This document shows, in pieces, positions 1-50,234 of a stretch of 56,528 nucleotides of DNA. The position numbers were made by a program, and so were the translations under genes. The stretch covers positions 1 to 56,528 of the forward strand of contig JBAZSF010000005.1 in the NCBI GenBank assembly GCA_041662525.1, given 5' to 3'. The notes below the pieces were generated by a model, which saw only the letters and a program-made list of their open reading frames with translations, was not told the DNA's origin and ran no database searches. Numbering within the stretch: the first letter of the stretch is position 1; each line of letters begins with the position of its first letter. The stretch is from Minisyncoccota bacterium (GTDB lineage Bacteria > Patescibacteriota > Minisyncoccia > Phycocordibacterales > UBA9973).

Positions 1-705
1 ATCGACGGCGGAGTTCGGCACCTCGATGTCGGCTCACCTTAGCGCGGCGGTGGAGAAGCTGCCAAGCGTTTGGCTGTTCGCCAATTAAAAAGGTACGCGA
101 GCTGGGTTCAGACCGTTAAGATTATAATTTATTTTGTAATTTTGACAGTTTGAACCCTCAGAGGAAATCGAATTGTAAGAATTTGAACTGTTTTAATCGA
201 AGACAACCAAGTGCATTAAATTGCACACACGGCGGTCCTAAATATTTATTTTATTTAGGAAGAAGTCGGGGTTTTCGGAGGAATCCGATCCTGAGCATTT
301 GCGAAGGAGGACAACACCGAGAAGAAATTTATTTTTCTTTGTAGAGACTACAAACCGACCACAAGAAATTGTGAATGTATAGTCCAATCCACACAGTAAT
401 GTGTGACGTAGATGCGTGAGACAGGTTGGTCTCCTATCTACTGCACTCGTTGATTCTTGAGAAGATTTGCATCTAGTACGAGAGGACCGATGTGAACTGA
501 CCTCTGGTGTACGAGCTGTCCTGCCAAGGGCACTGCTCGGTAGCTATGTCGGGAATGGATAACCTCTGAAAGCATCTAAGAGGGAAGCCAGCTTCAAGAT
601 TAGGAATCGTTAAGAACCGTGAGAGATGATCACGTTGATAGGCTTTAAGTGTAAGCGTAGCAATACGTTGAGCTGAGAAGTACTAATGTTTCGATTCCTG
701 TTAAG
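1..705 (+). rRNA. rrl: 23S rRNA gene, 3' part (runs off the window start; interrupted by intron 117-414)
   Basis: Peptidyl-transferase-region sequence GGCACCTCGATGTCGGCTC...GAGCTGGGTTCAGACCGT|CGTGAGACAGG, then CTAGTACGAGAGGACC and CTGAAAGCATCTAAG. The 3' end is approximate. Confidence 0.97.
117..414 (+). ncRNA. Group I intron in 23S rRNA at the site equivalent to E. coli U2593, no homing endonuclease ORF
   Basis: Removing 117-414 restores GACCGT|CGTGAGACAG. The 5' exon ends in U and the intron ends in G. P7 GACUA 346-350/UAGUC 380-384, P3 GUUUG 148-152/CAAAC 351-355, P8 CACAA-GAAA-UUGUG 360-373, P9 CACACA-GUAA-UGUGUG 390-405. Confidence 0.92.
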
Positions 706-747
706 AAATTTGGAAATCACAAAAAAATTATTGAGATCGAGTTTTCA

Positions 748-30872: not shown

Positions 30873-31520
30873 ATGTCTCTGTTTACAAAAAGAGAAATTA
30901 CGCTAATGCGGAGATTGGATACGCCTGCCAAGGTGCAGGATTTTTTAGATGGATTTAAATTTAATTTTGAGAAAGGTGGGGAGACATTAAAATCTCCTAT
31001 TTTAACCTTGAGAGCGCGAAACGCGCATTGCTTCGAAGGAGCGCTTCTTGGAGCTTATATATTGTCTTTACATGGTTTCACCCCCTATTTAATGCATTTT
31101 AAAGTAATAAAAGGAGATTATGACCACATCATTACTCCGTTTAAGGTTGGTGGTCTTTGGGGGGCATTGTCTAAAACCAATCATGCAGTTTTGCGTTATC
31201 GTGAGCCAATATATAAGAATGTTAGAGAACTCGCAATGTCTTATTTTCACGAATATTTTTTAAATGATAGGAGAAAAACTCTTCGGCAATATTCTACCCT
31301 TTTTAATTTAAAAAATTTAAATAAACCTGCCCGCCCTCATGATAACTCTGGAGCAGGCGGGGATTGGGCAATTTCAGAGAAAGATCTTTGGTATTTAGAT
31401 AAAAAATTAGATAAAATAAAACATTACGATATTGTTCCAAAAGCTTATCTGAAAAAGCTTCGCAAAGCAGACAAGATTGAGATAGAAGCTACAAAAATTG
31501 TAGAGTTTAGAAAATACTAA
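30873..31520 (+). CDS. Conserved hypothetical protein, possibly transglutaminase/papain-like
   Basis: AHCFEGA ... DHII ... WGALSKTN..LRYREP; carries a family A insert. Confidence 0.7.
   Translation: MSLFTKREITLMRRLDTPAKVQDFLDGFKFNFEKGGETLKSPILTLRARNAHCFEGALLGAYILSLHGFTPYLMHFKVIKGDYDHIITPFKVGGLWGALSKTNHAVLRYREPIYKNVRELAMSYFHEYFLNDRRKTLRQYSTLFNLKNLNKPARPHDNSGAGGDWAISEKDLWYLDKKLDKIKHYDIVPKAYLKKLRKADKIEIEATKIVEFRKY
31326..31361 (+). repeat. Family A insert, in frame (PARPHDNSGAGG)
   Basis: CCTGCCCGCCCT-catgataactct-GGAGCAGGCGGG. Confidence 0.9.
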
Positions 31521-33285
31521 AAATACTATCTATCAATTTTGCAAACCAATTTTTTTGCGGAATTTCTTTTTGCTCTGTTTGAGTTGGAATAGAGGGGGAA
31601 GGAGTAGTATTTATGGCTGTAGCTGTTAATGTTTCTTTTTTAATAAATTTTCTAGGATTTTTAACTACAATTTTTTCTACAGTCTCAATTTTTGGCTTTT
31701 CAAACTTTTGCATTATTTGATTCCAAGTTTTATCAGATAATACAGAAGCAACATAAGCAGTTTCCCAGATTTTATTATTTAAGTTATCGTTTTTCATTCC
31801 ACCATCAACGTCTTGTATTGTGGCTAGATAATTAAGTGGCGTGTTTTCTCCTTTTTTCCAATCTTCCACTTTTTCATTTAATGCGAGGATGCCTTCCATT
31901 GCCCAAGCCGTAGAGGAAACATTACCCCAACCACCATTTTCCTTTTGATTTTGTTTTAAGTATTCTCGCGCTTTTTTTAAACTTTCCCCTTCACCTGGTG
32001 AAGGGGAAAACACTGAAAGGGCTTCTATTGCTGCGCCAGTCATATCTACAGAATTATCCCAGGATCCGTTTTCATTCTGTGCTTTCAGAACAAAAGCTAT
32101 ATCGTCATTTATCATTTTATCAGTTATCATATAGCCAGCATTTTGTAAAACAATTAAAGCGAAAATATCATCATTGTCTTCATGGATATCTCCAAACTGT
32201 GTACCATCAAAACTAGTAATTATTTTTTCTATATAATTTTCACCATTTGTATTATATGGGTTAAGTCCAAGAGCCATTAATGCCATTGAATGTCTTTCAT
32301 AGTCTGTCAAAGATGGATTTTTTATTTTAGTTTCTTTCAGATATTTAGTTAATTTTGATATTTGTTCTGGATAATTTGCTGGTGCTAATGTTAAAGCTAC
32401 CCAATCTGTATATAAATCTTCACCAAAAGATCCGTTTTCTTTTTGTTGAGATGTTAAAAAGTCAAAAGCTTTTTTAAGATCAAAGATTGGTTCTGGCTCA
32501 GGTGTTGTGATAATAGGTGTAAAAACAAATCTACTGCCACCAGAGGAACGTGTAACTACTGGCTCTGGAATAGAATCAGGTTCAGGTTCTGGAACAGAAG
32601 TGGGTAGAATTGTTACAGTCAAGATTTCTGTTGGAAAATAAAAATCCTCTTTGATTCCAACATTGTATGATCCTGTCTCTAATGGTGTAAAAATTGCTTG
32701 ACCATTTGCGTCAACAGGTTGGACTTGAATTTCAGTAGGCGACCAAGGATTGTTGGGGTCTGGTTGTGTTACTCCTATATTTACACCTGTTAAAGCTAGC
32801 CAGTTATTATTTTGATAATCATAATCTTGCGCATTTACTGATAAAATATCATTTGTATTTATTGAATTAGAGCTTAGAATTATTTTGTGGTGTGGTCCAA
32901 AATAAAAATAAAGATTTTCCCCACCGGAAAGAATTTTTTGGTCTATTGCATCAAAAGGATAAGAATCATTTACAGTATATTGCCAATCATCACAACTACT
33001 ATTTATACATTTTAAATAAAATCCCATACTAGAATATTGCAAATCTGTAATTGAAAAATTATCGCTTAAAATATCTGCATCTGTTAATACCGAAAGAACA
33101 CTATTGGCACCAACATCGTGTCCTTGTATTTGAATTGTTCCAGGTATTTGAAGTGGAACAGCTCCGGAATAAATAATATTAGCTCCGTCTCGTATGGTTA
33201 GATTAACATCTGCGGCCAAAACAACATTTTTCCCGACAAAAAGTAATGCTACTAATAAAACTATTTTAATAATTTGATTTTTCAT
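31507..33285 (-). CDS. Secreted protein: DUF4430-like domain, Pro-rich linker, prenyltransferase/squalene-cyclase-type alpha-barrel
   Basis: Signal-like N-terminus (start 33285); WQYTVN; four QxxNG(S/G)(W/F)-type repeats. Confidence 0.75.
   Translation of the reverse strand: MKNQIIKIVLLVALLFVGKNVVLAADVNLTIRDGANIIYSGAVPLQIPGTIQIQGHDVGANSVLSVLTDADILSDNFSITDLQYSSMGFYLKCINSSCDDWQYTVNDSYPFDAIDQKILSGGENLYFYFGPHHKIILSSNSINTNDILSVNAQDYDYQNNNWLALTGVNIGVTQPDPNNPWSPTEIQVQPVDANGQAIFTPLETGSYNVGIKEDFYFPTEILTVTILPTSVPEPEPDSIPEPVVTRSSGGSRFVFTPIITTPEPEPIFDLKKAFDFLTSQQKENGSFGEDLYTDWVALTLAPANYPEQISKLTKYLKETKIKNPSLTDYERHSMALMALGLNPYNTNGENYIEKIITSFDGTQFGDIHEDNDDIFALIVLQNAGYMITDKMINDDIAFVLKAQNENGSWDNSVDMTGAAIEALSVFSPSPGEGESLKKAREYLKQNQKENGGWGNVSSTAWAMEGILALNEKVEDWKKGENTPLNYLATIQDVDGGMKNDNLNNKIWETAYVASVLSDKTWNQIMQKFEKPKIETVEKIVVKNPRKFIKKETLTATAINTTPSPSIPTQTEQKEIPQKNWFAKLIDSIFSIF
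31983..32009. repeat. Family B palindrome, in frame (SPSPGEGE)
   Basis: TTTCCCCTTCACC-t-GGTGAAGGGGAAA; two mismatches to the folD unit. Confidence 0.85.
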
Positions 33286-33646
33286 ATTTCCAAGAGACAA
33301 TGTCTCCAAGGTTAATTTTATAATTTGAAACACCGACTTGTGCTTCAACGCCGTTCACATAATAAATCCAATTTTCATTTCCATTATTTTTTATTCCATT
33401 GATCGAAACAATTAATTTTCCCATTCCCACATAATCTTTTTCTGTAAAATTTATTTTTCCTTCGTTTTGAAGTTTACTCATAAAATCATAAACACTAATT
33501 TTGCCTGCAATTGTGTCTTCAAACTCGATAGTATTTAAGGGCTTAGACTTAGAAGGATGAGGAATTATAAAAACAACACTTAAAATAGCTATAAAAATTA
33601 CTATTGTTAAAATTATTTTTTTATTTTTAGATATAAATTTATTCAT
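33266..33646 (-). CDS. Membrane-anchored DUF4430 (transcobalamin C-terminal-like) protein
   Basis: GKLIVSINGIKN...WIYYVNG...GVSNYKINLGDIVSWKY; start re-assigned to 33646. Confidence 0.88.
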   Translation of the reverse strand: MNKFISKNKKIILTIVIFIAILSVVFIIPHPSKSKPLNTIEFEDTIAGKISVYDFMSKLQNEGKINFTEKDYVGMGKLIVSINGIKNNGNENWIYYVNGVEAQVGVSNYKINLGDIVSWKYEKSNY

Positions 33647-33654
33647 AAATTTTA

Positions 33655-33727
33655 CACAAAAAAATTCCGCTATTTTGAGCAGAATTCTGGGTCTTCCTGT
33701 TAAAAAACAAAGAAGATTTTCCTGCTC
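33655..33727 (-). terminator. Riboswitch expression platform: terminator and competing antiterminator
   Basis: Minus strand AAUUCUGC/GCGGAAUU stem followed by a U run (33686-33655); upstream GAGCAG (33727-33722) can pair with CUGCUC (33682-33677). Confidence 0.7.
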
Positions 33728-33776
33728 GGGACACATCCCAGTAGTAGAGCAAAGCTCACTACGGGACACGTAAAAT

Positions 33777-33890
33777 GATTGGTATTCGGACTTATCCCTT
33801 CCACCTTTTGGTGTTTAGGACTTACCGTAGCGGCACTGTACTGGAATCTAACCAGTTTCCCCAATCACTTCTTTTAATTTTCAAAAGAAC
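33777..33890 (-). ncRNA. Cobalamin riboswitch
   Basis: Minus strand GGGAA-ACUGG-uuagauu-CCAGU-ACAGUGCCGCUACGGUAA ... AAGUCCGAAUACC (B12-box-like), closed by UGAUUGG/CCAAUCA; TATACT at 33902-33897. Confidence 0.88.
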
Positions 33891-33917
33891 TTTCTTAGTA
33901 TATACTTACCATATATT

Positions 33918-34391
33918 ATGTCAAAAAAAGATGTGGATAAAGAAAAAATAAAGAATAAAAAACAAATAAAGATAATGGTTTTTGGAACTTTTGACGGACT
34001 GCATGAAGGCCACATTAATTTTTTCAAACAGGCAAAAAAACTCATGAAGAACTCATTTTTGATTGTTTCAATAGCGAGAGATAAAAATGTGAAAAAGATA
34101 AAAGGGGAGTATCCAATTAAGAATGAGAAAGAAAGAATGATTTTAGTAAAGAAAAGTAACTTTGCAGATAAAGTTGTGTTAGCAGGCAAGACAAAATATT
34201 TGTCTCATATTTTAAAAGAAAAAATAGATATTATAGCTCTTGGCTATGATCAAAAAGCCTACGTGCAAGAACTTAAAAAAGATTTAAAAAACAAAGGTAT
34301 TTTTATAAAAATTATTCGCCTGAAACCTTTCAAAGAGAAAATTTACAAAAATCACTTATTAAATATCGCTCCTTTTTATCGTAGAAGATAA
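33918..34391 (+). CDS. Cytidylyltransferase-family nucleotidyltransferase (FAD synthase RibL-like)
   Basis: VFGTFDGLHEGH, VSIARD, DIIALGYDQ. Confidence 0.85.
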   Translation: MSKKDVDKEKIKNKKQIKIMVFGTFDGLHEGHINFFKQAKKLMKNSFLIVSIARDKNVKKIKGEYPIKNEKERMILVKKSNFADKVVLAGKTKYLSHILKEKIDIIALGYDQKAYVQELKKDLKNKGIFIKIIRLKPFKEKIYKNHLLNIAPFYRRR

Positions 34392-35519
34392 ATAAATTCC
34401 GTATAACATTACTGCTCCTAAAATAAGAAAAATAAAATTAAAAGATGGAGTAAATAGAAAAACAATAAAGGCAATAAGTGGGGCTACAATATAAGCTATA
34501 GATCTAGAGTTGCGATAAATGCTGATAAATTCATCATTTTCTACATTTATATGTTTGAAAAAATATACATCGCTCATTACTTCTGTGATTGCAGCACCAA
34601 TTCTTGTACTAAAAAGAGCTATTGCCCAAATCCAAACTTCATGTTTCTCAATAAGAAAAAGTGATAAGGTAGAGATAGACGCTATCAAAAATCCTAACAT
34701 CATCATTTTTCTCTCACCGATTTTATCGGAATATTTACCCAGGGGGAATTGAATTAATACAAAAGGCAGAAGCATCACAGTGAACATCATGGCTATTTCT
34801 TTCCAACTAAAACCCAGATGTGCATATAAATATATCGGTGTATAAATGATCATCCAAACATAGAAAAATTGTAAAAGAAAATTTATTTTATAAGCACGAG
34901 TAAGATTTTTATTTATAAAGAAATTTTTAAACGATTGCCAAGCAAAAACTTTGTCATATTTGGGATCATTTAGATTCTTTAAGTTCCAAAATGTAGTGAT
35001 AAAAAAGATAGTCATTATTACAAAAGCAACAAAATAAAGGGTTGAAAAAGAAAATTTTGACAATATTTCGATAGAAAGAGCTTGAGAAATTACCCAAGCT
35101 AGACCCACGATAGAAAGATATAATCCACGCATTTTTCCCATTAATGAATTTTTGGAAAATATTTGCAGTAGTTCGTCTAAGGCAAAAACAATCAAATGGT
35201 TTAGGGTGAAATAGAAAATAAAGATTGAGATGATGAGAGCAGAACTTTTAAAGATAGATAATAAAAGAAGAGAAAGAGCATTCAGGCCTGATAAAAAAAG
35301 TAAGAATTTATATCCTCCTACTTTTCGGAGTATCCCGGGTATAAAAAAAAATACAAATAAAGAAATCAAAGAACCCAAGGCATATATTAAACCGACATTT
35401 TTTTCTCCTGAAAATGAAGAAAGAAAACTGGAGTTAATAAAAGAAGTGAATGCTAGTTGTAGAGATGCTAAAAACCCCAAAACAAAAATACTTTTTAATT
35501 TTGAATTTTTCGTAAACAT
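34359..35519 (-). CDS. MFS transporter
   Basis: About 12 TM segments; GKYSDKIGERK motif-A-like loop. Confidence 0.88.
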   Translation of the reverse strand: MFTKNSKLKSIFVLGFLASLQLAFTSFINSSFLSSFSGEKNVGLIYALGSLISLFVFFFIPGILRKVGGYKFLLFLSGLNALSLLLLSIFKSSALIISIFIFYFTLNHLIVFALDELLQIFSKNSLMGKMRGLYLSIVGLAWVISQALSIEILSKFSFSTLYFVAFVIMTIFFITTFWNLKNLNDPKYDKVFAWQSFKNFFINKNLTRAYKINFLLQFFYVWMIIYTPIYLYAHLGFSWKEIAMMFTVMLLPFVLIQFPLGKYSDKIGERKMMMLGFLIASISTLSLFLIEKHEVWIWAIALFSTRIGAAITEVMSDVYFFKHINVENDEFISIYRNSRSIAYIVAPLIAFIVFLFTPSFNFIFLILGAVMLYGIYLSSTIKRSDI

Positions 35520-40054: not shown

Positions 40055-42367
40055 ATGCAAAAAGAAACATATCAAATAAAAGGAATGCATTGTGCCTCAT
40101 GTGCCAGTATTATAGAAAGAACTGTTAAAAAAATTGATGGCGTGGAAGATGTTTCAGTTTCTAGTGGTATGGAAAATGCCAAGGTGTCTTTTGATGCTAC
40201 TAAGACAAATCCAGCATCTTTTAATGAAAAACTAAAACCGCTCGGTTATTCTTTTGTCATTCAACAAACGGCAGAGGAAATGGGCATGAGCGAAAGTGAA
40301 CATGCGGAGCATTTGGGACTTAATCAAACAAAAAAAGAAAAACTGGAAGAACTAAAAGATATGCGAAATAAGCTTTATTCTCTTATTCCTATTGTAATCA
40401 TAAGTATTTTTGTCATGAGTTATGATATTTTTGCAGAATTGAATTGGATACCTCCTATGTCCATTATTTGGAGTAAATTTTTCATGCATCTTTTGCCAAT
40501 CCTCGCCACTTATACTTTGTTTGTAGTAGGCAAACCATATTTGCTCGGCTTATATCGTTTCTTGCGTTATGGAAAAGCGAATATGGATACTCTCATTGGT
40601 CTCGGTACCTCTGTCGCGATGTTCTATAGTTTTATTCTCGATGCTTTCGAGACAAGCCTGGAACCTTTTTTAAATGTTGATCAAAGTTATTATGACGTGG
40701 CTATTGTGGTTATTGCTTTTATCACTCTTGGAAAATATTTAGAAACACGTTCAAAATTAAAAACTGGTGATGCGATAGAAAAGCTTTTAAATCTACAAGC
40801 AAAGACTGCCTTGGTTATTAGAGAAGAAAAAGAGGTTGAGGTATCAATAGATCAAGTAGTTCACGGAGATATAATAGTAGTAAAACCAGGAACAAAAATT
40901 CCTGTGGATGGAGTCGTTGTGACAGGCTCTTCTTATGTGGATGAGTCTATGGTCACGGGCGAGCCGATGCCAGTGGAAAAAAAAGAAGGAGATAGTGTAG
41001 TGTCAGGAACAATAAACACAAATGGATCTTTTACCTTTAGGGCGACAAAAATAGGAGGGGAGACACTTCTGGCACATATTGTAAAAATGGTGGAGGAGGC
41101 GCAGAGTAGTAAAGCGCCCATTCAAGCATTAGCTGATAAAATCTCAAGTGTTTTTGTGCCTGTTGTTTTAGGGATTGCATTTGTTGCTTTGATATTATGG
41201 CTTATTATAGGTACGCAATATTTAGGATTTTCTCAAGCTCTTTCCTTTGGTTTAGTTTCTTTTGTGGGCATACTTATCATTGCTTGTCCGTGTGCACTCG
41301 GCTTGGCGACGCCGACAGCTATAATCGTGGGTGTAGGCAAGGGAGCAAAAGAAGGAATTCTTATTAAAGATGCGGCCACTCTTCAAAAGCTCTATGAAGT
41401 AAATACAGTAGTTATTGATAAAACTGGGACATTAACTTTTGGAAAACCCGAGCTTTCTTCAATCAATAACTTTTCAAATAAAACTGACGATGAACTCGTT
41501 CTGATTCTCGCTTCATTAGAAAATAAATCAGAGCATCCTATTGCTAGTGCAGTTATTAATTATGTCAAAGATCCTACAAGGGCTAAAGAAAAAAATATTA
41601 AAATTGAAGAAGTAAACAATTTTGAAATTATTAAAGGGAAAGGGTTGAAGGGAATAATTGACGGAGTAGAATATTTTGCTGGTAATACTAAATTAATCAC
41701 TGATCTTGGTTTATCTTTTGATAAAGATGTATTAGAAAAAGAAACATTGGAAGGCAAAACGCCGGTAATTCTTGCTGATAAAAATAAAGTACTTGGTATA
41801 TTTATGATAGCGGATACGATAAAACCTGAAGCCATAGAAGCAGTGAAGAATTTACACAAACTTGGTATAAAAATCGTGATGCTTTCAGGCGATAATAAAA
41901 ATACAGCAGAATATATCGCAAAACTTGTAGGTATTGATGAGGTGGTGGCAGAGTCGATGCCTGAAGATAAATTAAATAAAATAAAGGAACTTCAATCGGA
42001 GGGGAATATTGTAGCTATGGCAGGAGACGGAGTAAATGATGCTCCAGCGCTTGCCCAAGCAGATGTAGGCATAGCGATGGCTACTGGTACCGATGTGGCT
42101 ATAGAAAGTGCTGGTATTACTCTTCTGGGCGGGGATATCTCAAAGATTGTCAAAGCCATTAATCTATCAAAAATAACAATGCGGGGGATAAAACAAAATC
42201 TTTTTTGGGCTTTTGTGTATAATATAGTAGGTATCCCCTTAGCAGCTGGATTATTTTATCCATTATTCGGTTGGTTATTAAATCCAGTATTCGCAGGTTT
42301 TGCTATGGCGATGTCGAGCGTGTCCGTGGTCGGAAATTCATTACGTATTAAAAGTAAAAAAATATAA
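40055..42367 (+). CDS. copA: Copper-translocating P1B-type ATPase
   Basis: GMHCASC HMA motif, [32 protein letters not shown]...MAMSS. Confidence 0.95.
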
Positions 42368-42451
42368 GCGTCGCGCTTTAAGTCGCATTTTAAAGGAGAA
42401 TGCGACATGATTCATCAGAATCAATTGCGCGACATAATTTCGTTAAATCAT

Positions 42452-43483
42452 ATGAAAAAATATACATTTCATGTTTCAGGAACTCATTGTGCATCTTGTA
42501 AAATCTTAATTGAAGATATTTTGATGGATTCGAAAAGCTCACCACAAGAAGAGCAGATTGTTAAAAGTGTCAAAGTTGATCTAAAAAAAGAAATTGTAGA
42601 GATAGAAACTGACAGTGAAAAGAATCCCGAAGAACTTGCTCAAATTCTTACAAGTAAAACAGAAACAAACGGTTATACGTTCTCGGTTGAGAAAACAATT
42701 CAGGAAAATAGAAGTGATGATGTTATTTGGAAAGCTATACCCATTGGACTTGTTTTTGTGGTGTTATTTTTTCTTCTACAAAAGTCTGGAATTCTTAATT
42801 TGAGTTTTGGTAGTACCATTACACCGACGACTAGTTTTATGATTGGAATTGTTGCTTCGCTTTCTAGTTGTTTAGCGGTCGTGGGTGGTTTGATTCTTTC
42901 ATTATCAGCGAAAATATCTCAAGACGATAATGGTAAAGTCAAAAAGCCCTTGATCTTATTTCATATTGGGAGATTGGTTAGTTTTGCTGTGCTTGGTGGG
43001 ATGCTCGGGTTCCTTGGAAAGGAGATAGGTATTAGTTTTATTTTTTCTACGATACTTGGACTTCTTGCTTCAATTGTAATGCTTTTGCTTGGTATCAATT
43101 TACTTGGAATTTTAAAGAAAAATATTTTTACCTTACCGGGTAATATATTTTCTTTTTTTAGAAAAGTGGAACATGCCACCCTTGCTCCTATTCTTGTTGG
43201 TATAGGAACGTTTTTCTTGCCTTGTGGCTTTACGCAAGCGATGCAAATTACAGCGCTTTCTAGCGGATCATTTATGTCGGGGTTGCTTATTATGTTTGCA
43301 TTTGCGCTTGGTACATTACCCGTCTTAGCATTATTATCATTTAGCTCAGTATCATTTGTTCATTCTAAATATGCTCCTCTTTTTTTCAAATCAGCTGGAG
43401 TGGTAGTGATTGTTCTTGCTTTGTTTAATCTTATTAATAGCTTGGTGGTTATAGGTCTTATTCCGCCCTTATTCAACTTCTAG
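42452..43483 (+). CDS. HMA domain fused to a DsbD_2/TauE-like membrane domain
   Basis: GTHCASC; SSCLAVVGG; FLPCGFTQ; FALGTLP. An alternative start at 42407 has an SD. Confidence 0.85.
   Translation: MKKYTFHVSGTHCASCKILIEDILMDSKSSPQEEQIVKSVKVDLKKEIVEIETDSEKNPEELAQILTSKTETNGYTFSVEKTIQENRSDDVIWKAIPIGLVFVVLFFLLQKSGILNLSFGSTITPTTSFMIGIVASLSSCLAVVGGLILSLSAKISQDDNGKVKKPLILFHIGRLVSFAVLGGMLGFLGKEIGISFIFSTILGLLASIVMLLLGINLLGILKKNIFTLPGNIFSFFRKVEHATLAPILVGIGTFFLPCGFTQAMQITALSSGSFMSGLLIMFAFALGTLPVLALLSFSSVSFVHSKYAPLFFKSAGVVVIVLALFNLINSLVVIGLIPPLFNF
42529..42548 (+). repeat. Family E insert, in frame in the HMA domain
   Basis: TTCGAAAAGCTCACCACAAG within MDSKSSPQEE. Confidence 0.55.
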
Positions 43484-43529
43484 CTTAACTTTTTGATTAT
43501 AATTTTAATTTAAAAATCACAAATATACC

Positions 43530-43919
43530 ATGAAAAAAATATCAATATCAATTTTAATAGCATTAGCGCTTATAGTAGCAGCCTTTATGATTGCGAAAGG
43601 AGGAGAGAGAGCACCGGTATCTAATAATGAAAACAATGTTTCTGTTGTGGACGGGAAACAAATTATAGATCTAACGGCAGTGGGGGGTTATTCTCCAGAA
43701 AAAAGCGTTGCCAAAGCTGGCATCCCTACTACCTTGCGATTTAACACAAATGGAACATTTGATTGTTCATCATCAGTGCGGATTCCATCCTTAAATGTGA
43801 GTAAAAATTTAGCACCAGCAGGAATTACAGAGATTGATTTAGGAATTCCTAAAGAGGGAATTATGCGAGGAAGTTGCAGTATGGGTATGTATCCTTTTGA
43901 AATTGATTTTCAAAATTAA
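43530..43919 (+). CDS. Cupredoxin-like domain protein
   Basis: GGYSP, FDCSSSVRIP, GSCSMGMY. Confidence 0.85.
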   Translation: MKKISISILIALALIVAAFMIAKGGERAPVSNNENNVSVVDGKQIIDLTAVGGYSPEKSVAKAGIPTTLRFNTNGTFDCSSSVRIPSLNVSKNLAPAGITEIDLGIPKEGIMRGSCSMGMYPFEIDFQN

Positions 43920-47405: not shown

Positions 47406-50234
47406 ATGAAAGAATACGATCATAAGAAAATTGAAAAAAAATGGCAAACTATCTGGGAGAAAAAAGGAATCTATCGTGCTCAAAATAATTCTAAGAAGAA
47501 AAAGTTCTACAACTTAATTGAATTTCCTTATCCGTCCGGAGATGGTATGCATGTGGGGCACATCAGAAGCAATACCGCTATGGATATAATTTCTCGCAAA
47601 CGCAGAATGGAAGGTTTTAATGTTCTTTATCCTATAGGTTGGGATGCTTTTGGTTTACCGACAGAAAATTATGCTATAAAAACAGGCAAGCAACCCGCAG
47701 TCATTACGAAAAAGAATACAGATACTTTTAGAAGACAGCTTCAGTCTATCGGTTTTTCTTTTGACTGGTCGCGGGAAATAAACACTACCGATCCGAAATA
47801 TTACAAATGGACTCAGTGGATATTTTTGCAGTTTTTTAAAAAAGGTTTGGCATATAAAGCCAAAATGACTATTAATTGGTGCCCAAAAGATAAAATAGGT
47901 CTTGCCAATGAAGAAGTAATAGATGGATGTTGTGAGCGTTGTGGAACACAAGTCGAGCAAAGGGAGAAAGAGCAATGGATGCTCGCAATTACTAAATACG
48001 CCGATAGACTTTATAAAGATTTAGATGATGTGGATTATCTTCCACAAATAAAACTTGGACAGAGAAATTGGATAGGGAAAAGTGAGGGAGCAGAGATTGA
48101 ATTTCAAATTGAGTTTCCGGACGTCCAACGTCCGAATTCTGTGAAAATTTTTACGACTCGACCTGACACTATTTTTGGTGCGACATATCTCGTACTTGCG
48201 CCAGAACATGAATTAGTTCAGAAATTAAAATCTCAAATTACAAATTGGAAAGAGATAGAAAATTATATCAGGGAAACAAAAAACAAAACTGAGATAGAAA
48301 GAAATGTTGAAGATAAAATAAAAACAGGAGTAGAATTAAAAGGGATAAAAGCAGTCAACCCTGCGACTAAAAAAGAGATTCCAATATGGATTGCAGATTA
48401 TGTGCTTGTCACCTATGGCACAGGAGCGATAATGGCTGTACCAGCACATGATGAACGTGATTTTGCATTTGCGAAAAAATATGATTTGGAAATAATAAAT
48501 GTTATTGAGCCTGTTTATATTGATAGACCAAAAGAAGATTTGTCTTTTATTGAACGAGAAGCGATTCATGCCATTGTTAAGCATTGGAAAGAAGATAAAT
48601 ATCTTGCTTTAAAATGGAAAAAAGTTAATTGGCTTACTTTTATAACTGGTGGTGTGGAGTCTGGAGAAAATACTAAAGATGCTGCAATACGAGAGATTCA
48701 AGAAGAAACCGGATATCAAAATTTAAAACTTATAAAAGAATTCCCGCGTTCACATAGTAAGTTTTATCATGAGCCCAAAAAAGAAAATCGTTTTGCGCAT
48801 TTTTCCAATTTTTATTTTCAACTTATTAATGATGAGCAAAAAGAATTATCTCAAGAAGAACAAGAAATACATGAATTAAGATGGATGACCACGCAAGAAC
48901 TAGAAAAAGAAATGACGATAGGTGGTGCTCTTCGAGATTTAGAAAATTTACAAGGTAAAGAGAAAACTTATTCTGGTACAGGAATACTTACGAATTCTGG
49001 TAAATTTGATGGATTTGATTCTGAAAAAGCCAAAAAAGAAATTATTAAATTTGTTGGAGGAAAAGAGAAGGTGACTTTCAAGCTTCGTGATTGGATTTTT
49101 TCTCGTCAGCGATATTGGGGTGAGCCGATACCAGTAATTCATTGTGAAGATTGTGGAATGGTGCCTGTGCCTGAAAAAGATTTACCAGTAGAGCTTCCAA
49201 AAGTAAAAAATTATCAGCCGACGGATAGTGGAGAGTCACCACTTGCGAATATCTCCAAATGGGTAAATGTAAAATGCCCGAAATGTAAAGGCAAAGCCAA
49301 GAGAGAAACAGACACAATGCCAAACTGGGCGGGTTCTAGTTGGTATTATCTTCGTTATACGGATTCGAAAAATAATAAAGAATTTGCCAGCAAAAAGAAT
49401 TTAAAATATTGGACACCAGTGGACTGGTACAATGGAGGGAATGAACATACTACCCTTCATCTTTTATATTCACGTTTTTGGCATAAATTTTTATTTGACT
49501 TAAAACTTGTACCTACATCTGAGCCATATAAAAAGCGTACTTCTCATGGCATGATTTTAGGTGGGGGAGGCGTAAAAATGTCGAAATCACTTGGAAATGT
49601 GATAAATCCAGACGATATAGTCAAAACATACGGCGCGGACACCTTGCGTCTTTATGAGATGTTTATGGGTCCTTTTAATCAATCTGTCGCTTGGAGCGAA
49701 GAAGCTATCATTGGTCCAAGGAGATTTTTAGAAAGAGTTTGGAATCTTCAATCTAAAATACAAAAAAATAAAAAATATAATGAGTTTGAGATTGAAAAAG
49801 CTATAAAAAAAGTCGGAGAGGATATTGAAGAGATGAAGTTCAATACAGCTGTTTCGACTTTAATGATTTTTATTAATGAAATTAGTAAGCTTGAATCTAT
49901 TTCACAGATGGCTTATGAAAAATTTTTAAAGATTCTTTCCCCATTTGCGCCTCATATAACTGAAGAGTTATGGCAAATATTGGGTTATAAAAAATCAATT
50001 AATCAGGAATCATGGCCGGTTTTTGATCTTTCAAAAATTCAAGACTTCGAACTAAAAATCGCAGTACAAATAAATGGAAAAGTTAAAGCAGAGATAATGA
50101 TATCACCTGAGGATGATGAGGAAATAGTAAAGAAAAAAGCATTTGCAAATGAAGCTGTTTTGAGACATACATCCGGCAAAGATATAAAAAAGGTATTTTA
50201 TGTTAAAAATAGACTTATCAATATAGTTTTTTAG
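47406..50234 (+). CDS. leuS: Leucine--tRNA ligase with an internal NUDIX domain
   Basis: FPYPSG..MHVGH, GWDAFGLP, FTTRPDT, GTGAIMAVPAHDERD, SRQRYWGEP, KMSKS. Confidence 0.97.
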   Translation: MKEYDHKKIEKKWQTIWEKKGIYRAQNNSKKKKFYNLIEFPYPSGDGMHVGHIRSNTAMDIISRKRRMEGFNVLYPIGWDAFGLPTENYAIKTGKQPAVITKKNTDTFRRQLQSIGFSFDWSREINTTDPKYYKWTQWIFLQFFKKGLAYKAKMTINWCPKDKIGLANEEVIDGCCERCGTQVEQREKEQWMLAITKYADRLYKDLDDVDYLPQIKLGQRNWIGKSEGAEIEFQIEFPDVQRPNSVKIFTTRPDTIFGATYLVLAPEHELVQKLKSQITNWKEIENYIRETKNKTEIERNVEDKIKTGVELKGIKAVNPATKKEIPIWIADYVLVTYGTGAIMAVPAHDERDFAFAKKYDLEIINVIEPVYIDRPKEDLSFIEREAIHAIVKHWKEDKYLALKWKKVNWLTFITGGVESGENTKDAAIREIQEETGYQNLKLIKEFPRSHSKFYHEPKKENRFAHFSNFYFQLINDEQKELSQEEQEIHELRWMTTQELEKEMTIGGALRDLENLQGKEKTYSGTGILTNSGKFDGFDSEKAKKEIIKFVGGKEKVTFKLRDWIFSRQRYWGEPIPVIHCEDCGMVPVPEKDLPVELPKVKNYQPTDSGESPLANISKWVNVKCPKCKGKAKRETDTMPNWAGSSWYYLRYTDSKNNKEFASKKNLKYWTPVDWYNGGNEHTTLHLLYSRFWHKFLFDLKLVPTSEPYKKRTSHGMILGGGGVKMSKSLGNVINPDDIVKTYGADTLRLYEMFMGPFNQSVAWSEEAIIGPRRFLERVWNLQSKIQKNKKYNEFEIEKAIKKVGEDIEEMKFNTAVSTLMIFINEISKLESISQMAYEKFLKILSPFAPHITEELWQILGYKKSINQESWPVFDLSKIQDFELKIAVQINGKVKAEIMISPEDDEEIVKKKAFANEAVLRHTSGKDIKKVFYVKNRLINIVF
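48118..48134. repeat. Family D palindrome, in frame in leuS
   Basis: CGGACGT-cca-ACGTCCG, encoding PDVQRP. Confidence 0.6.

Follow-up and report, generated by a model that had tools for sequence, protein, structure and literature searches.

What does a bacterium of the candidate phyla radiation (CPR), a group with minimal biosynthesis that is thought to depend on hosts, do with a cobalamin riboswitch that governs two extracytoplasmic proteins and no transporter? The question is raised by a locus in a contig of a Minisyncoccota bacterium from groundwater metagenomes, the whole 56,528 nt of which are called the window here. In it, a leader RNA of the vitamin B12 (cobalamin) type is followed by two overlapping open reading frames, ORF1 and ORF2, which encode a small membrane-anchored DUF4430 protein and a large secreted protein. 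A preliminary description of this DNA had read the locus as a B12-capture module of a CPR cell, possibly feeding a class II ribonucleotide reductase (RNR), with no permease beside it. The analysis given here leads to much the same answer: with a probability of roughly three in four, the locus is a cobalamin-repressed operon for the extracellular capture of corrinoids. The argument begins with the leader, the elements of which are as follows (coordinates of the module are on the minus strand of the window unless stated otherwise).

33897-33924, minus strand: sigma-70-like promoter, with a -35 box TTGACA at 33924-33919, a 16-nt spacer and a -10 box TATACT at 33902-33897
33760-33908, minus strand: cobalamin riboswitch aptamer, Rfam RF00174 (clan CL00101), 42.9 bits against a gathering score of 31.5
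33735-33767, minus strand: extra stable hairpin GUCCCGUAGUGAGC...GCUCUACUACUGGGAU, found by folding, between the aptamer and the antiterminator segment
33720-33727, minus strand: 5' segment of the antiterminator, GAGCAGGA, complementary to the 5' arm of the terminator
33716-33692, minus strand: small hairpin between the antiterminator segment and the terminator
33654-33688, minus strand: intrinsic terminator, an 11-bp hairpin at 33688-33661 followed by a U-run ending at 33654

Each of the elements named in the preliminary description (promoter, B12 aptamer, antiterminator/terminator and two overlapping genes) is thus present. The promoter-like site matches 11 of 12 consensus positions; its -35 box lies just beyond 33902, the upper bound that had been given for the locus, its -10 box is kept in the alignment of close relatives, and transcription would start near 33890. 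No RNA-sequencing run containing the locus was found. The identity given to the aptamer was borne out by the Rfam covariance model, the match to which has an E value of 1.6e-7 for the whole 56.5-kb window, and the aptamers of three of the first four relatives also exceed the gathering score. The B12 box, AGUCCGAAUACC (33792-33781), is near-invariant in the aptamer alignment, and the P6 extension falls below the Rfam consensus length, with 9 nt in place of 51 model positions. The closing helix supported by covariation pairs 33873-33861 with 33782-33770; the outermost P1 of the Rfam model is weakly paired and would lie partly upstream of the probable transcription start.

The strength of the riboswitch assignment comes from its relatives. 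A scan of one genome per species gave 179 genomes with a match, the best 80 loci of which were analysed; all locus counts below refer to these 80. A covariance model purpose-built from five aptamers and run over them found an aptamer in 71, exactly one per locus and always upstream on the same strand. In the alignment of the window with these 71 loci (72 sequences), 96.3% of the cells are paired and 22 of the 32 base pairs show compensatory changes, whereas in a control with the pairing partners slid by 1-3 columns the pairing falls to 26-45%. Because the same arrangement recurs in 71 of the 80 loci with strong covariation, the riboswitch is far beyond chance, and the leader is, on this comparative evidence, a genuine and conserved cobalamin riboswitch for which a response to ligand can be predicted.

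Downstream of the aptamer, the antiterminator and terminator pairings are mutually exclusive. The antiterminator duplex is calculated at -11.1 kcal/mol and the terminator hairpin at -10.4 kcal/mol, and the minimum-free-energy fold of the full leader contains the antiterminator. The U-run ends 8 nt before the ATG of ORF1 (33646), and a hairpin with a U-tract just before the ATG recurs, with few exceptions, across the 72 sequences that have an aptamer, its stem sequence being different in distant relatives. Loci that share the gene order of the window (window-type loci, described below) carry (A)GCAGGA(U) at the 3' edge of the aptamer, always complementary to the terminator arm, and in a few divergent loci antiterminator and terminator co-vary, as in L055 (AGAAGAU with AUCUUCU) and L063. 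The extra hairpin at 33767-33735 belongs to a subset of relatives only, having been seen in L012, L008 and L007.

The riboswitch promoter is closely bordered by a divergent gene for a 157-residue cytidylyltransferase-like protein (33918-34391, plus strand), which has weak matches to FAD synthetase and RfaE domain II and occupies the same position in 38 of the 80 loci. Its ATG is 1 nt from the -35 box, so two divergent promoters must share about 30 nt.

The two proteins under the control of this leader are built as follows.

33266-33646, minus strand: ORF1, 126 residues, with a signal-anchor helix (residues 9-27) and an SLBB/DUF4430 domain (residues 56-123)
31507-33285, minus strand: ORF2, 592 residues, secreted, overlapping ORF1 by 20 nt
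33285-33214, minus strand: Sec-type signal peptide of ORF2 (residues 1-24)
33207-32896, minus strand: SLBB/DUF4430-like domain of ORF2 (residues 27-130), with invariant C93/C98 and a W-Q-Y-x-V-N motif
32889-32602, minus strand: beta-sandwich of ORF2 (residues 133-228)
ORF2 residues 232-261, minus strand: disordered PEPEP (Pro/Glu) linker
32502-31696, minus strand: alpha/alpha toroid of ORF2 (residues 262-530)
ORF2 residues 534-578, minus strand: disordered tail
31551-31510, minus strand: conserved C-terminal motif of ORF2, NWFAKLIDSIFSIF (residues 579-592), a short helix

ORF1 matches the Pfam family DUF4430 (PF14478) with an E value of 4.7e-11 and 43.4 bits, above the cut-off of 23.8. Its AlphaFold2 model (predicted local distance difference test, pLDDT, 73.5) was compared with the PDB by Foldseek; the top 12 matches are the beta domains of transcobalamin, haptocorrin and intrinsic factor plus the founder structure of DUF4430, 3u7z, all with a probability of 0.99-1.00, and every later match has 0.35 or less. 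The likeness to the beta domain of the animal carriers that had been proposed for this protein is therefore what the fold search returns, and returns exclusively. On the isolated beta domain of human transcobalamin (5np4) the model superposes with a root-mean-square deviation of 1.6 A over 76 columns. Only the fold search was informative here, a profile of ORF1 having found no meaningful match among PDB sequences. As modelled, the domain is a transcobalamin-type SLBB domain, that is, a beta-grasp fold with the transcobalamin-type insert, and is extracytoplasmic.

ORF2 can be placed outside the cell by its Sec signal peptide and by two invariant Cys residues of the disulfide type; the protein has no other Cys, and both lie in the N-terminal SLBB domain. 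By profile comparison this domain is a divergent paralogue of ORF1: hhalign aligns it with the ORF1 family at E 0.0047, NWIYYVNG being aligned with DDWQYTVND, and the ORF1 hidden Markov model matches the N-termini of some ORF2 orthologues with E values down to 3e-9. No relation to the ORF1 family was found by hhalign for the middle and toroid domains. In the AlphaFold2 model (mean pLDDT 83.4) the alpha-barrel of the preliminary description is present as a toroid, and transcobalamin (2bb5, 2bb6) is among its Foldseek matches at ranks 47-48 with E 6e-6, but the resemblance is not specific to transcobalamin, since thioester-type TED domains and terpene cyclases rank higher. Across 41 orthologues, Pfam finds SQHop_cyclase_C in 41, TED in 36, DUF4430 in 24 and Cobalamin_bind in 20, with best orthologue E values of 2.5e-8 for DUF4430 and 3e-8 for Cobalamin_bind. 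Membership of the eukaryotic cobalamin-binding family itself (PF01122) was considered for ORF2 and rejected, its score being below the cut-off and its domain order beta-sandwich-alpha; it is transcobalamin-like and not a member. Homologue clusters number 207 for ORF1 and 689 for ORF2, and those with names all come from Patescibacteria, Paceibacterota or Nomurabacteria. A tblastn search with ORF1 against plasmids gave no match.

Two further features of ORF2 orthologues may be noted. The conserved C-terminal end, preceded by a disordered tail of 45-70 residues rich in Lys, Thr and Pro, reads roughly K-x-[NS]-W-F-x-[RK]-[LF]-[LI]-x-x-I-F-[SG]-x-F, which is below the length of a transmembrane helix; possible functions are surface anchoring or sorting in CPR cells, or docking as a helix. 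In two orthologues of 808-821 residues (P0004 and P0005), SLBB domain and beta-sandwich are tandemly duplicated, giving two SLBB domains before the toroid.

The company that the pair keeps in other genomes connects it to B12 use. The small DUF4430 gene stands directly upstream of the large gene in 72/80 loci, and six of the eight exceptions are cut by the end of a contig. In two loci, L033 (5679-5962) and L035 (5729-5977), an ORF2-type gene follows the riboswitch directly, without an intervening small DUF4430 gene. Distant orthologues (39-45% identity) are found in genomic contexts other than that of the window, and in 22 of the 80 loci the pair, with its riboswitch except in L058 and L064, lies directly downstream, on the same strand, of genes for NrdJ, an adenosyltransferase and an S-component-like membrane protein. 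The NrdJ proteins of these relatives have the ATP-cone, RNR_alpha, RNR-II insertion and barrel domains; they score 281 bits against TIGR02505 (RTPR), under the 340-bit cut-off of that model, and their plasmid homologues are annotated as adenosylcobalamin-dependent ribonucleoside-triphosphate reductase (RTPR). The adenosyltransferase is of the PduO type in 14 loci and of the CobA type in L021 and L058, and this exchange in the same slot is taken to be a non-orthologous replacement. In L058 (5060-7854) and L064 (5014-7899) the covariance model finds no aptamer and the pair directly follows the adenosyltransferase gene, with a 12-nt gap in L058; the pair appears there to be joined into an S-component-nrdJ-adenosyltransferase operon. 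The idea that a B12-capture module might feed a class II RNR thus gains weight from the conserved riboswitch, the fold of ORF1 and the 22 relatives in which the pair abuts this gene set.

The same gene set is known from Lactobacillus as the nrdJ-cbrS-cbrT-pduO cluster (Rodionov 2009; Santos et al. 2018). The S-component-like membrane protein (176-208 residues, in 21 loci) aligns with the energy-coupling factor (ECF) S-component of Lactobacillus intestinalis at an hhalign E value of 1.5e-5, and the sole PDB relative of its family is 6fnp_A (E 0.0055); no match to it was found by tblastn against plasmids. Structure 6FNP is the vitamin B12 transporter ECF-CbrT of Lactobacillus delbrueckii, the gene for which lies in the nrdJ-cbrS-cbrT-pduO cluster and which also transports cobinamide (Santos et al. 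2018). The annotated genes of L. intestinalis run nrdJ, DUF4430 protein (128 residues), ECF S-component, adenosyltransferase, and from the match of this order to the published name of the cluster, CbrS can be deduced to be the small DUF4430 protein. ORF1, which aligns with that protein at E 1.7e-5 (hhalign), would then be the counterpart of CbrS. The correspondence between the 22 Nomurabacteria loci and the Lactobacillus cluster thus extends to the whole gene set, with profile E values of about 1.5e-5 for both DUF4430 protein and S-component; however, a large SLBB-toroid protein is missing from the Lactobacillus cluster, and in the clade of the window the pair lies apart from nrdJ, cbrT and the adenosyltransferase gene. 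No Rfam riboswitch reaches the gathering threshold in the L. intestinalis cluster, and the nrdJ neighbourhood of C. perfringens has no DUF4430 gene.

The detachment in the window clade is itself a conserved state. About 48 of the 80 loci share the synteny of the window, with genes for SecG, SBP_bac_5, RNase J, a major facilitator superfamily (MFS) transporter and the cytidylyltransferase-like protein, then the divergent riboswitch-ORF1-ORF2 unit and then a convergent gene for a 215-residue protein. This synteny is vertical conservation among housekeeping genes and carries little functional information. In none of these loci is nrdJ found within 6 kb. Their proteins are 46-78% identical, and since genes, aptamer and terminator are intact, with many invariant residues, purifying selection appears to act on the module. 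The MFS transporter (34359-35519), which is two genes from the module, was considered as a B12 permease and rejected: it belongs to the housekeeping synteny, lies outside riboswitch control and is absent from loci with divergent contexts. The 215-residue gene (30873-31520, plus strand) is convergent with ORF2, overlaps its 3' end by 14 nt and is found beside the pair in 48 of the 80 loci; its product matches no Pfam or NCBIfam family, and the orthologue in L002 weakly resembles Vasohibin, a transglutaminase-like protease.

Taken as a capture operon, the module would work as follows. At low B12, the antiterminator would form by pairing of GAGCAGGA with UUCUGCUC, and ORF1 and ORF2 would be co-transcribed; their translation is probably coupled because of the 20-nt overlap. 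ORF2 would be exported by the Sec pathway and its signal peptide cleaved, whereupon its SLBB domain and toroid, joined through the beta-sandwich and flexible linker, would clamp a corrinoid as transcobalamin does, with the domains in the opposite order. ORF1 would take over the corrinoid at the membrane for transfer to a CbrT-like S-component permease, the gene for which would lie elsewhere in the genome, and inside the cell an adenosyltransferase would make adenosylcobalamin for the class II RNR NrdJ. With cobalamin in ample supply, ligand bound to the aptamer would let the terminator form, 8 nt ahead of the ORF1 start codon, and the capture proteins would no longer be made. The analysis shows the structure of the RNA with its covariation, the mutually exclusive pairings of terminator and antiterminator, the folds and export signals of the proteins and the linkage of genes in relatives. 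We infer the corrinoid binding, which of the SLBB domains closes on the toroid and the order of the hand-off, as well as the disfavouring of the antiterminator by ligand and the presence of nrdJ, cbrT and an adenosyltransferase gene in this genome.

Several observations weigh against this reading. A Pfam scan of the 40 ORFs of at least 110 residues in the window found no ECF, Btu, S-component or B12-dependent enzyme genes, in keeping with the absence of an adjacent transporter that the preliminary description had remarked upon, and tblastn with the NrdJ, S-component and adenosyltransferase proteins of the relatives also found none in the window; because the 56 kb hold no nrdJ, adenosyltransferase, S-component or ECF genes, the B12 users of this organism are putative. 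In the leader, the modelled helix of the L5 region is invariant and so has no support from covariation, and no element that would sequester the antiterminator in the ligand-bound state, such as a kissing-loop partner, was identified. The window ORF2 matches DUF4430 below the cut-off (E 0.008, 17.1 bits) and Cobalamin_bind likewise (E 0.0026, 17.2 bits against 25), the latter over residues 435-476 only. In the Foldseek ranking for its toroid, transcobalamin stands below TED domains of alpha2-macroglobulin and complement, below MstE, a monodomain class II cyclase, and below drimenyl diphosphate synthase, and the alpha/alpha toroid, as modelled, is a generic superfold that does not discriminate. 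Finally, the literature searched yielded no corrinoid-binding experiment on any bacterial transcobalamin-type SLBB/toroid protein, and no biochemical study of such a protein later than the prediction of 2007 discussed below.

These points have to be set against what other explanations could offer. The one that survives best accepts that the pair binds corrinoids but holds that it does so mainly for purposes other than uptake: sequestering or hoarding at the surface against the host or neighbours, storage or buffering, or else that it prefers incomplete corrinoids. The separation of the window-clade pair from any transporter fits such a role, as does the single aptamer per locus, which controls extracellular proteins only and never the S-component or nrdJ, and the carriage of cobinamide by ECF-CbrT would suit a preference for incomplete corrinoids. 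Repression by cobalamin, however, is the logic of an acquisition system, and the pair is tightly linked in relatives to genes for a CbrT-like permease, NrdJ and adenosyltransferase, with no aptamer between in L058 and L064. We regard a non-uptake role as unlikely, though not negligibly so.

Far less probable is that ORF2 is a prenyltransferase, an enzyme of the squalene-cyclase type or a TED-like binder acting on a non-corrinoid substrate, with ORF1 as the only link to B12. Its best matches do point in this direction, since they comprise squalene-hopene cyclase repeats (the only matches of its profile among PDB sequences) as well as the MstE, drimenyl diphosphate synthase and TED structures mentioned above; the window protein itself matches SQHop_cyclase_C with E 9.5e-9, and an N-D-D sequence at the start of an inner helix is invariant. 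Yet the protein is extracellular and has one toroid only, of about 270 residues. A class II terpene or squalene-hopene cyclase is rejected on scores of 40.5 bits against TIGR01787 (cut-off 322.7) and 28.2 against TIGR01507 (cut-off 431) and on the cleavable signal peptide. The apparent DxDD cyclase motif is actually x-N-D-D, and its first position varies (D, N, Y, E, I, V) in the 41 orthologues. An alpha2-macroglobulin or complement TED domain is rejected as well: the likeness is at the level of fold, with 12-14% identity, and the CGEQ thioester motif is absent. In addition, fusion to an SLBB domain and the 20-nt overlap with ORF1 occur under a B12 riboswitch in about 70 genomes, and nearly half of the orthologues (20/41) match Cobalamin_bind. 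An enzymatic or thioester role is thus unlikely on these motifs and scores, and the public labels of ORF2 orthologues as prenyltransferase, squalene oxidase or terpene cyclase are not supported by the evidence, so that their annotation is corrected here. That the pair is a regulated relic, feeding no pathway in a lineage that has lost its B12-dependent enzymes, would account for the lack of a B12 user or transporter in 56 kb and of nearby nrdJ in the roughly 48 window-type loci, but is scarcely credible for two genes, an aptamer and a terminator that are all intact and strongly conserved at 46-78% protein identity.

How much of the corrinoid-capture operon is new can be judged from known systems. 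Burroughs, Balaji, Iyer and Aravind (2007, Biol Direct 2:4, PMC1796856) described secreted or anchored bacterial transcobalamin-type SLBB proteins with signal peptides, in which the SLBB domain is fused to an alpha/alpha toroid on either side and sometimes to domains of the immunoglobulin fold. Their operons also encode a small SLBB paralogue and usually have CbiO/CbiQ genes; the organisms lack B12 synthesis, and B12 scavenging was predicted. The module described here, a secreted SLBB-toroid protein plus a small SLBB paralogue, has essentially the same architecture. The reversed domain order and two-protein arrangement to which the preliminary description drew attention are therefore seen in ORF1 and ORF2 but are not new. 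Where those operons usually contain CbiO/CbiQ-type ECF genes, the pair here is by itself in a CPR bacterium, controlled by a cobalamin riboswitch and with no transporter in 56 kb, and the word "riboswitch" is absent from Burroughs et al. (2007).

Mammalian transcobalamin, intrinsic factor and haptocorrin are two-domain clamps for B12, with an alpha6/alpha6 toroid and a beta (SLBB/DUF4430) domain, and both folds are matched here. ORF2 differs from these carriers in the reversed order of its domains and in the beta-sandwich and 30-residue linker inserted between them, and the module differs in that a second SLBB domain is carried by another, membrane-anchored polypeptide; apart from the superfolds that they share, nothing points to common descent. 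The capture proteins of Bacteroides are outer-membrane lipoproteins that feed the TonB-dependent BtuB of a diderm cell, and among them BtuG is a beta-propeller, an unrelated fold. The logic described in two reports on BtuG and the multiprotein relay (PMC6143338, PMC13616437) is the same: riboswitch-linked, high-affinity surface binders hand corrinoids to a membrane transporter. The cell considered here, in contrast, is a presumed monoderm CPR bacterium with an S-component-type permease.

Domain order, two-protein arrangement, riboswitch class and the logic of nrdJ-cbrS-cbrT-pduO are thus already known. What is new is the module as a conserved feature of a CPR lineage (Nomurabacteria/Paceibacterota), the combination of a large SLBB-sandwich-toroid protein with a CbrS-like protein, a riboswitch that governs the extracellular pair only and never the permease, reductase or adenosyltransferase, and, in the window clade, the physical separation of the pair from the genes for these three. 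A search of the literature on CPR/Patescibacteria with cobalamin riboswitch, B12 or RNR found nothing relevant.

Three other features of the window are recorded for completeness. The 3' portion of a 23S ribosomal RNA (rRNA) gene (1-707, plus strand) has a 302-nt insertion relative to the Rfam model of the bacterial large-subunit rRNA; insertions are frequent in CPR rRNA genes. In the leucyl-tRNA synthetase (47406-50234, plus strand), the editing domain is followed by an inserted NUDIX domain (residues 408-502). A copper/heavy-metal cluster (40055-43919, plus strand) encodes a P-type ATPase with an HMA domain, an HMA-DsbD_2 membrane protein and a cupredoxin-like protein, and is unrelated to the B12 module.

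Within the capture reading, a more specific and more tentative picture can be drawn, one that we hold to be possible rather than probable. The Nomurabacteria may have a self-contained corrinoid relay, in which ORF2, tethered by a CPR-specific C-terminal anchor or released, would take B12 from the host or the environment and deliver it to the CbrS-like ORF1, and from there to a solitary CbrT-like S-component working in the style of BtuM without an ECF module. If such a relay exists, the supply of B12 to NrdJ, and hence DNA synthesis, would be a point of host dependence.

The locus provides a concrete case in which a riboswitch is predicted to sense B12 and transcobalamin-like proteins to capture it extracellularly; to judge by the relatives, the vitamin would be used for making deoxyribonucleotides by way of an adenosylcobalamin-dependent reductase. 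The Nomurabacteria pair, being compact, well conserved and confidently modelled, would be a good entry point to the bacterial transcobalamin-like proteins. Should ORF2 prove to hold B12 in a beta-alpha clamp, transcobalamin would for the first time have a bacterial counterpart that is open to experiment.

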